A DNA stretch of 64,000 bases. It comes from a virus. A program made the position numbers and the translations under genes. The stretch lies in IMG/VR virus record IMGVR_UViG_3300018412_000010; one strand, given 5' to 3'. Positions 16,906 through 17,315 of the stretch are shown here, piece by piece (positions within the stretch are counted from its first letter, which is position 1; every line of letters starts with the position of its first letter). The notes under the pieces were generated by a model. That model was not told the origin of the DNA. It saw only the letters and a program-made list of their open reading frames with translations, and did no database searches.

Positions 16906-17315
16906 CAAGACACATAAACATTATTCTTGTATATGTATGTATTAATTGCTGCATGTGTCTTTAAATAATCCCAAGATGCATAAATATGTAAACCTTTTAA
17001 TAAATTATAATTTGAGTTTTATATTAATTGCTGTTAGCACCTTTGTGGGGATTTTATAATTGTTGGCGTGTAGGGGATTCGAACCCATAACATATTGTTT
17101 CATCGCATTATTATTGTTTCGCAGTTAATGTCTAATACAAGACATTATATACACACAATTGCTCTACCAGTTGAGCTAACACGCCATATTTCAAGACGGT
17201 ATAAAAATAATATCCAAATAATTTTTATATAGTTTGCTGAACCCGTCTTATTCTTACAAGATGCATTAATATTAATGTAACTATTATTAAATCTTTTGTT
17301 TGCTGTCTGCATCTT
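16906..17315 (-). repeat. array of four CAGCAA hairpin repeats (R4 16906-16961, R3 16972-17043, R2 17192-17249, R1 17257-17315) around a tRNA-like RNA
   Basis: 7-bp stems AAGAUGC, AAGACGG, AAGGUGC and AAGACAC with compensating 3' arms ending UCUUG; constant NNN-CAGCAA. Confidence 0.8.
17064..17185 (-). ncRNA. tRNA-like RNA with anticodon loop replaced by a ~55-nt insert (YrlA-like candidate)
   Basis: GGCGUGU/ACACGCC acceptor, AGCUCAACUGGUAGAGC D-arm, GGUUCGAAUCC T-arm; AUUGU/ACAAU stem enclosing the insert; ends ACA rather than CCA. Confidence 0.75.

Follow-up and report, generated by a model that had tools for sequence, protein, structure and literature searches.

The window analysed here is a 64,000-nucleotide (nt) stretch of viral DNA (IMG/VR record IMGVR_UViG_3300018412_000010). 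It contains a 122-nt gene on its minus strand, at 17064-17185, whose RNA joins the body of a tRNA to a rotated copy of a helix-plus-box module, or handle, that also occurs on the small RNAs around it. We think it probable that this RNA, hereafter the mimic, is a non-decoding, tRNA-shaped, Y-RNA-like partner of the Ro60-like DUF2828 protein encoded just downstream. Ro60 and its Y RNAs form a conserved and poorly understood RNA-surveillance system. The mimic is a real, conserved small-RNA gene, and four of its properties are established: a tRNA architecture, a covarying rotated handle, homology by circular permutation with YrlA-like units, and linkage to DUF2828.

The Rfam tRNA model (RF00005) covers the minus strand from 17185 to 17064 over its full length with 50.4 bits and an insertion of ~55 nt at the anticodon loop, and ARAGORN made no call for 17064-17185. 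In a search at E <= 10 around this locus, Rfam returned the tRNA match and noise, and nothing else. The limits of the gene follow from this match together with sequence reading, homologues and covariation. The acceptor stem of 7 base pairs (bp), GGCGUGU/ACACGCC (17185-17179 / 17071-17065), is followed by a discriminator A at 17064. The D arm reads GCUC-AACUGGUA-GAGC (17176-17161), the T arm AUGGG-UUCGAAU-CCCCU with one U.C mismatch (17088-17072), and the variable loop has 5 nt (17093-17089). As read from the sequence, the tertiary-contact bases of the cloverleaf are complete (U8, A14, A15:U48, G18G19, G46, U54U55C56 and A58). The discriminator is followed by ACAAUU, hence CCA is not encoded; CCA follows all four canonical tRNAs of the window. 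A closed 5-bp anticodon stem, AUUGU/ACAAU (17159-17155 / 17098-17094), is also present. In place of a 7-nt anticodon loop bearing U33 and purine 37, it encloses a 56-nt insert (17154-17099), delimited by the Rfam alignment, sequence and folding.

Within this insert lies a perfect 8-bp hairpin, UAAUGUCU-UGUAUU-AGACAUUA (17147-17126), and then, after a single A, the box CUGCGA (17124-17119), a double variant of CAGCAA. The standard with which this module is compared is provided by five minus-strand units, R1-R5, which share the layout AAGRYnnn-N0-3-CAGCAA-AU-rich loop-nnnRYCUUG and whose stem interiors differ in sequence yet remain paired. In the mimic the 3′ arm of this repeat comes first, a loop spans what is the open end of the repeats, and the 5′ arm follows; the box has the same position relative to the helix as CAGCAA has in the repeats. 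Indeed, the pattern UCUUG-N2-7-AGA-N6-CWGCRA occurs once in 64 kb, in the mimic, and in 0 of 100 shuffles. The handle family as a whole has a covarying helix with YCUUG and AAGR ends and places CAGCAA 0-4 nt past the AAGR strand; the UCUUG of the mimic fits this helix. Two otherwise conserved positions are degenerate there, with UAGA for AAGA and CUGCGA for CAGCAA. Much of this had been proposed in an earlier sequence-only reading of the window, and its account of normal acceptor, D and T arms, of a missing CCA, of a genuine repeat for comparison, and of that repeat's 3′ arm set before its 5′ arm and followed by a CAGCAA variant agrees with ours. Its 6-bp stem and 3-nt spacer can also be read as 8 bp and a 1-nt spacer. 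Its statement that ~55 nt replace the anticodon loop describes the window but not the wider family, in which the module breaks into the stem on its 5′ strand.

The insert also contains a 9-nt direct repeat, GAAACAAUA, at 17120-17112 and 17101-17093 (span 17093..17120; p about 0.01), which offers the 5′ strand of the stem two alternative ACAAU partners. An energy model gives -33.1 kcal/mol for the proximal pairing vs -27.4 kcal/mol for the distal one, and the relatives of the mimic favour the distal one. The idea that this repeat reflects a target-site duplication or a switch was dropped, long direct repeats at p <= 0.01 being found in only 3 of the 46 family members described below.

Relatives were gathered by one exact-pattern scan of IMG/VR in which protein information was not used. 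The scan yielded 62 loci, of which about 47 had genuine tRNA bodies and 15 were chance matches; 40 distinct RNAs from it were aligned, and adding close relatives brought the number of distinct tRNA-shaped RNAs with the handle module to 46. Among the 40 aligned RNAs, 98% of cells were paired, vs 69% after shuffling. Covariation, with 4-6 pair types, was seen throughout the acceptor, D and T stems and in both handle pairs that the pattern had left free. The first A of AAGA was no part of the pattern, and 35 of the 40 have it. Close relatives of the window (62-69% protein identity) have a tRNA-shaped RNA in the same array slot with compensated acceptor, T and anticodon stems, the last occurring as AUUGU/ACAAU, AAAGU/ACUUU and AAUGU/ACAUU. 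For example, locus L002 (67% protein identity) has two such RNAs in this slot, with handles of the form UAUCUUG-AAA(A)-AGAUA-N3-4-CAGC(A/G)A, and L073, L074, L075 and L078 have one to three each; L001/L003 and a Paraclostridium contig have none. The earlier reading had asked whether homologues lack the permuted stem: they keep it, with compensatory changes. The window locus itself recurs in identical copies in three other metagenomes.

Three tRNA-plus-handle RNAs of L074 (1790-2320) have the helix ends UAUUG/AAUA, UAUCG/AGAUA and UCUAG/GGUA, one of them with the box CAGCAU. These handles lack UCUUG/AAGA ends, and the exact-pattern scan therefore undercounts the family. A blastn search of cultivated phages with the window RNA gave no match, no Rfam family was found for the handle RNAs of DUF2828 loci or for this type of tRNA-shaped RNA, and we found no paper on either. 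We also considered whether the handle hairpin itself imitates an anticodon arm; in 7 of 46 members the handle forms a 5-bp stem closed by the 7-nt loop UUGNNAA, an eighth match of that scan being a true anticodon arm, vs an average of 3.4 and at most 8 in shuffles, and the idea was rejected as a general feature.

The closest known counterpart is YrlA (Rfam RF02553; Chen et al. 2014, PMC4201824), a Y RNA of bacteria and phages bound by Rsr/Ro60, in which tRNA-like T, D and acceptor elements are likewise combined with a protein-binding helix that replaces the anticodon arm. It too is encoded beside a gene for a Ro60-fold protein and shares its transcript with other Y-like RNAs. In M. smegmatis, YrlA is cleaved by RNase P and CCA is added, which gives it tRNA ends (PMC4201824). 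The window RNA differs in that its gene order is circularly permuted: its acceptor ends are open and its handle is internal and loop-closed, whereas YrlA ends in the protein-binding stem. Further differences are the motif, GNCGAAN0-1G in YrlA (PMC4201824) vs CAGCAA in the handle family and CUGCGA in the window; the partner, a Pfam TROVE protein for YrlA vs DUF2828 here; and the complete anticodon loop that many members of the handle family retain. No YrlA match was obtained in the window region at E <= 10.

The link between the two arrangements comes from the Enterococcus phage EfV12-phi1 (L084, MH880817.1). At 2082-2541, ahead of its DUF2828 gene, this phage has three unannotated units with CAGCAA-handle ends and permuted tRNA interiors, running from the T arm through a loop-closed acceptor to the D arm; an additional handle unit without a T loop begins at about 2601, also before the gene. 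The Rfam YrlA model matches two of the three units with 45.2 and 34.3 bits, below its gathering score of 69, and the alignment includes the tRNA-like part and leaves out the Ro-binding stem. When the unit that scores 45 bits (L084:2422-2541) was rotated, by cutting it at the acceptor loop and joining it at the handle, it aligned end to end with the tRNA-ended RNA of L009 at 77% and with that of Synechococcus phage B3 at 76%, with a score of 121 vs 42 unrotated. Because the rotated unit aligns at 76-77% to tRNA-ended members, the sequences indicate that the two forms, with tRNA ends and with handle ends, are homologous and differ in topology. The prediction that the mimic is a permuted YrlA analogue is thereby borne out, through handle-ended units that match YrlA below threshold.

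The B3 RNA (L083, MN695334.1, 2494-2603) is annotated as 'tRNA-OTHER / tRNA-Pseudo-GCA' with a pseudogene flag and is actually an intact tRNA-plus-handle RNA. It carries the module UAUCUAG-UU-UAGAUA-UUAA-CUGCAA within a split anticodon stem, ACG|GC…GCCGU, and lies about 390 nt downstream of a DUF2828 homologue. Many phage records probably carry such genes under a wrong label.

The protein encoded next to the mimic (15401..16876, minus strand; 491 amino acids) matches the Pfam families DUF2828 and DUF7788/vWA, with TROVE not among the reported matches, and has an invariant DxSxS...T...D set that is MIDAS-like (MIDAS, metal-ion-dependent adhesion site). A sequence search of the PDB found no relative. 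Its AlphaFold2 model (pLDDT 90.7, pTM 0.89) was then compared with the PDB by Foldseek, where the 13 best matches were all Ro60/TROVE structures, each with probability 1.0 and aligned over the full length at template-modelling (TM) scores of 0.43-0.57. The best of these (TM 0.52-0.57) were the Ro60 of phage phiLo, Xenopus Ro60 and Deinococcus Rsr, and human Ro60 was among the 13. The protein is thus confidently predicted to adopt the Ro60 ring fold; the sequence-only reading had called it Ro-like, and the RNA co-occurs with its gene. Among cultivated phages, 710 records have a homologue, those of Felix O1-like phages, A511 and mycobacteriophages among them, and metagenomes add thousands more. 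A literature search for DUF2828 brought up incidental mentions only. As judged from the model, DUF2828 is a large branch of the Ro60-fold proteins.

Even though the scan was blind to proteins, a DUF2828 gene lies within 26 of the 47 genuine loci, mostly a few hundred bases away, vs 0 of the 15 chance loci. Ten further contigs were inspected; seven have a DUF2828 gene elsewhere, among them each of the four with a completeness of 90% or more, and the three without one are 42-71% complete. Standard handles stand directly upstream of the DUF2828 gene also in relatives at 41% identity, in Bacillus phage FADO (five units) and in Listeria phage A511 (three units). Some arrays have no tRNA-shaped member (L001, L076, A511 and FADO). 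In two phage contigs of ~220 kb, a skipping-rope RNA (RF02924, 64-71 bits; L006 179-265, L008 147-260) and a DUF3800-VIII RNA (RF03075, about 42 bits; L006 41-104, L008 10-73) head the tRNA array upstream of the CAGCAA handles and DUF2828.

In the window, the array begins with a sigma-70-type promoter at 17324..17352 (TTGACA-17-TATTAT with a TG extension, 11/12 hexamer matches), and everything in it is on the minus strand. This promoter precedes R1 (17256..17317; AUAAGAUGCA-GA-CAGCAA-loop-UGCAUCUUGU), which is followed by R2 (17191..17250; UAAGACGG-GUU-CAGCAA-loop-CCGUCUUGA), and the 3′ end of R2 is 5 nt upstream of the mimic. Next come R3 (16967..17053), with an extended bulged stem, AAUCCC-CACA-AAGGUGC-UAA-CAGCAA-loop-GCAUCUU-GGGAUU, and orthologues in the same array slot of L002, L073-L075 and L078, and R4 (16906..16961; AAGACACAUG-CAGCAA-loop-UAUGUGUCUUG), which abuts the ribosome-binding site of the DUF2828 gene. 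All four are in standard order. Since the promoter precedes R1 and no terminator-like site was seen between it and the DUF2828 gene, R1, R2, the mimic, R3, R4 and the gene are predicted to form one transcript, in which the mimic lies 188 nt upstream of the gene.

We infer the protein binding of the mimic, the processing of its ends and its downstream role along the following lines. Transcription from 17352-17324 would produce a single array RNA comprising R1, R2, the mimic, R3, R4 and the DUF2828 mRNA. With its acceptor, D and T arms and its elbow intact, the mimic would be cut to true tRNA ends by host RNase P and 3′ processing enzymes, and its fold would give it a tRNA-like resistance to nucleases. 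The tip of its anticodon stem would then display the helix-plus-C(A/U)GC(A/G)A module in loop-closed form, the same module that R1-R5 would offer as open ends. By analogy with Ro60 and Rsr on the Y-RNA stem, the DUF2828 ring would bind this module, and the resulting particle would bear a tRNA look-alike available to factors that recognise tRNAs, such as those of processing and repair or host enzymes that target tRNAs.

Several observations weigh against this reading. The window copy has the most divergent handle of the 40 aligned RNAs and is the sole aligned member with both the U and the G variant of the box, in addition to UAGA. Because two conserved handle positions deviate, the binding of its UAGA/CUGCGA form to DUF2828 may be weak or absent. 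Energetically, the proximal ACAAU pairing is the optimum, and UGCG is partly sequestered in it. Many relatives, moreover, look like interrupted tRNAs. We kept p nt after position 26, deleted one block, and demanded 5 Watson-Crick or G-U pairs around a 7-nt loop with U33 and R37, followed by a variable loop of 4-5 nt. At p = 2-3, 23 of the 46 members pass, with deleted blocks of 39-54 nt after nt 28/29; shuffles average 0.38 and never exceed 3. Judged by these deletions, RNAs of the wider family have the module set into the 5′ strand of their anticodon stem, after nt 28/29, and the loop is not replaced. Two examples that combine the module with a whole anticodon arm and an encoded CCA are L074b, a full class II tRNA-Tyr(GUA), and L057, a tRNA-Phe(GAA). 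Some large tRNA arrays have no second tRNA that shares the anticodon of the interrupted one. The search of each locus, all of them partial, for an ordinary tRNA of matching anticodon had a mixed outcome.

All this could suggest an intron-bearing tRNA, from which the handle module is cut out and the ends ligated to yield a decoding tRNA; DUF2828 might guide this, and the phage Rnl1/kinase-HD set, or RtcB in relatives, might do the sealing. RNA ligases are in fact encoded in the window and beside the relatives A511 and L075. Those members that pass the deletion test may indeed be spliced; for the mimic we regard this explanation as unlikely. In the window, L002b, L075 and L078, the whole module is enclosed by a complete, covarying 5-bp stem; no canonical anticodon arm can be recovered by block deletion in L002b and L078, the nearest relatives, and only trivial in-loop deletions restore one in the window and L075. 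The window product could only have the His-type loop GUGUGAA or GUAUGAA, and it lacks tRNA-His identity (A73, U at -1). Among the interrupted tRNAs, A34 occurs in 6 of 24, vs 7 of 350 ordinary tRNAs of the same loci (standard Arg-ACG aside; Fisher p = 5e-5), and because of this enrichment their anticodon loops look unconstrained; anticodons also vary between RNAs of 76-77% identity. The EfV12-phi1 homologues end at the handle, so the module cannot be an intron there, and its conservation is like that of a functional module. No group I intron matched in Rfam, at gathering threshold or at E <= 10, and 56 nt would be far too short for one.

Remnants in the window clade, such as GC-GAUGA-A, resemble the inner stem-loop of the canonical members. 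The comparison indicates that this clade kept the tRNA body and the handle while its anticodon arm decayed. Function would therefore require the shape and the handle and not decoding, which we consider the strongest argument available. As no conserved anticodon arm can be recovered in the window clade, a mimic is favoured for the window element, and on its sequence it is very probably non-decoding.

A broader version of the splicing idea deserves mention, improbable as we consider it. A phage-encoded, ligase-coupled system that cuts and rejoins RNA, guided by the DUF2828 ring, might use the helix-plus-CAGCAA module as its recognition element. The normal-order interrupted tRNAs and the permuted handle-ended units could then be two substrates of one pathway that excises the module or interconverts linear and circular forms. 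Archaeal bulge-helix-bulge introns are short, protein-dependent tRNA interruptions that can lie outside 37/38, including inside the anticodon stem, and the permuted tRNA genes of Cyanidioschyzon present the same tRNA in normal and circularly permuted order. The handle family resembles both, in an interruption inside the anticodon stem and in the coexistence of normal and permuted orders, and differs in that the interrupting module is a conserved handle-like helix and box that is also carried by free-standing small RNAs. If true, a cut-and-rejoin system would be the bacterial-virus counterpart of archaeal protein-dependent tRNA splicing and permuted-tRNA maturation. No bulge-helix-bulge motif was seen by eye, no formal search being made, and no splicing endonuclease was identified in this analysis. 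The window does contain, as context, a T4 Rnl1-type RNA ligase (33382-32150), an open reading frame without Pfam match (32178-31363) and a P-loop kinase with an HD phosphohydrolase (31361-30462), all on the minus strand; together (30462..33382) they look like a set for RNA heal-and-seal repair. In relatives, RtcB is found near the DUF2828 gene instead of the Rnl1 set (the A511 locus L072, and L075).

Similarly doubtful is the proposal that the mimic is processing punctuation, a tRNA shape that draws RNase P and RNase Z to free R2, R3 and the mRNA, the handle being incidental. The spacing suits it, since the mimic starts 5 nt past R2 and lies shortly upstream of R3 in one predicted transcript, and many relatives have a standard unit that stops a few nt short of the tRNA-shaped RNA. 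It leaves unexplained, however, the covarying handle helix and box inside 46 tRNA bodies and the absence of ordinary tRNAs from the slot, and arrays without a tRNA-shaped member exist, as in L001, L076, A511 and FADO. Punctuation could be a secondary benefit of the mimic.

That the element is a decaying relic of an interrupted tRNA or handle RNA whose function has been lost seems very improbable to us. Its divergent handle, its lost anticodon arm and the local 9-nt duplication would fit decay; the tRNA stems and tertiary bases that are all intact, the perfect 8-bp handle hairpin, and the same-slot RNAs with compensatory changes in relatives at 62-69% protein identity would not, and each box variant occurs singly in otherwise intact members. 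Least probable of all is an RNA that acts independently of DUF2828 as a decoy or sponge, directed at host defence that targets tRNAs or at enzymes that modify them. The complete elbow and acceptor and the phage's investment in tRNA supply and RNA repair (a tRNA cluster, a GluRS-like gene, Rnl1 and the kinase-HD protein) might suggest it, but the window RNA offers no anticodon loop for recognition, and the tight DUF2828 linkage and the shared handle would be left unexplained.

A Y-RNA-like partner of the DUF2828 protein also has a precedent. Thermus phage phiLo encodes a Ro60 with the RNAs Yrl1/Yrl2, and phage Ro60-Y RNA particles therefore exist (PMC12135203; PDB 9KOP, 9L5Y). As in the window, a phage-encoded Ro60 ring is accompanied by small partner RNAs directly upstream of its gene, and this ring is the best structural match of the window protein, at only 17% sequence identity in the structural alignment. 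Yrl1/Yrl2 differ in having been identified by a CGAA motif in a stem-bulge-stem, with no tRNA body described (PMC12135203). The layout of R1-R5 itself is reminiscent of the dictyostelid Class I RNAs, which, according to the text of the paper, are ~60 nt long with a covarying end-joining stem, a conserved 11-nt motif beside its 5′ strand and an otherwise variable sequence (Kjellin et al. 2021, PMC7919456). The letters of that motif stand in the figures only, so that the resemblance lies in the layout and is no more than a lead, and the paper describes no tRNA-embedded form (PMC7919456).

The handle of the DUF2828 phage loci is a different one, and their tRNA-shaped partners come in both circular permutations. 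We know of no one who can say why bacterial Y RNAs mimic tRNAs, and partners with a complete anticodon arm vs none constitute a natural series that bears on which part of the tRNA shape matters. Culturable phages represent each type: Synechococcus B3 has a tRNA-ended RNA, EfV12-phi1 handle-ended ones, and Listeria A511 and Bacillus FADO plain handle RNAs. For annotation, the consequence is that tRNA-plus-handle genes are currently missed or called pseudo-tRNAs.

Several other features of the window were noted. The fifth standard-order unit, R5 (14907..14966, minus strand), lies apart from the array and has its own promoter (15001-14973, 12/12). Upstream of it, the segment 15098-15010 (minus strand) consists of a 12/12 promoter (15098-15070) followed directly by a hairpin of 10 bp whose arms, CAUCCGUCCG...CGGGCGGAUG, enclose a loop of 17 nt, and the promoter at 15001 comes directly after this hairpin. 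The element could serve as an attenuator or be a very short RNA close to its promoter. A sixth tRNA-like gene at 13145-13216 (minus strand; Rfam 40.6 bits, no ARAGORN call) encodes CCA and has an odd T loop, UACGUAA, and the anticodon loop AUCUCAA. The 44 nt upstream of it (13217-13260) are a partial duplicate of its 3′ part (…CUAGGCGAGGUCACCA), and a phage synthetase gene of GluRS/GlnRS type (9311-11014) is about 2 kb away. Between the tRNA cluster and this odd tRNA lies an open reading frame for an HNH_3 endonuclease (13767-14186, minus strand), and, according to the sequence-only reading, a dnaE gene elsewhere in the window contains a LAGLIDADG intron; mobile endonucleases are therefore frequent in this phage.

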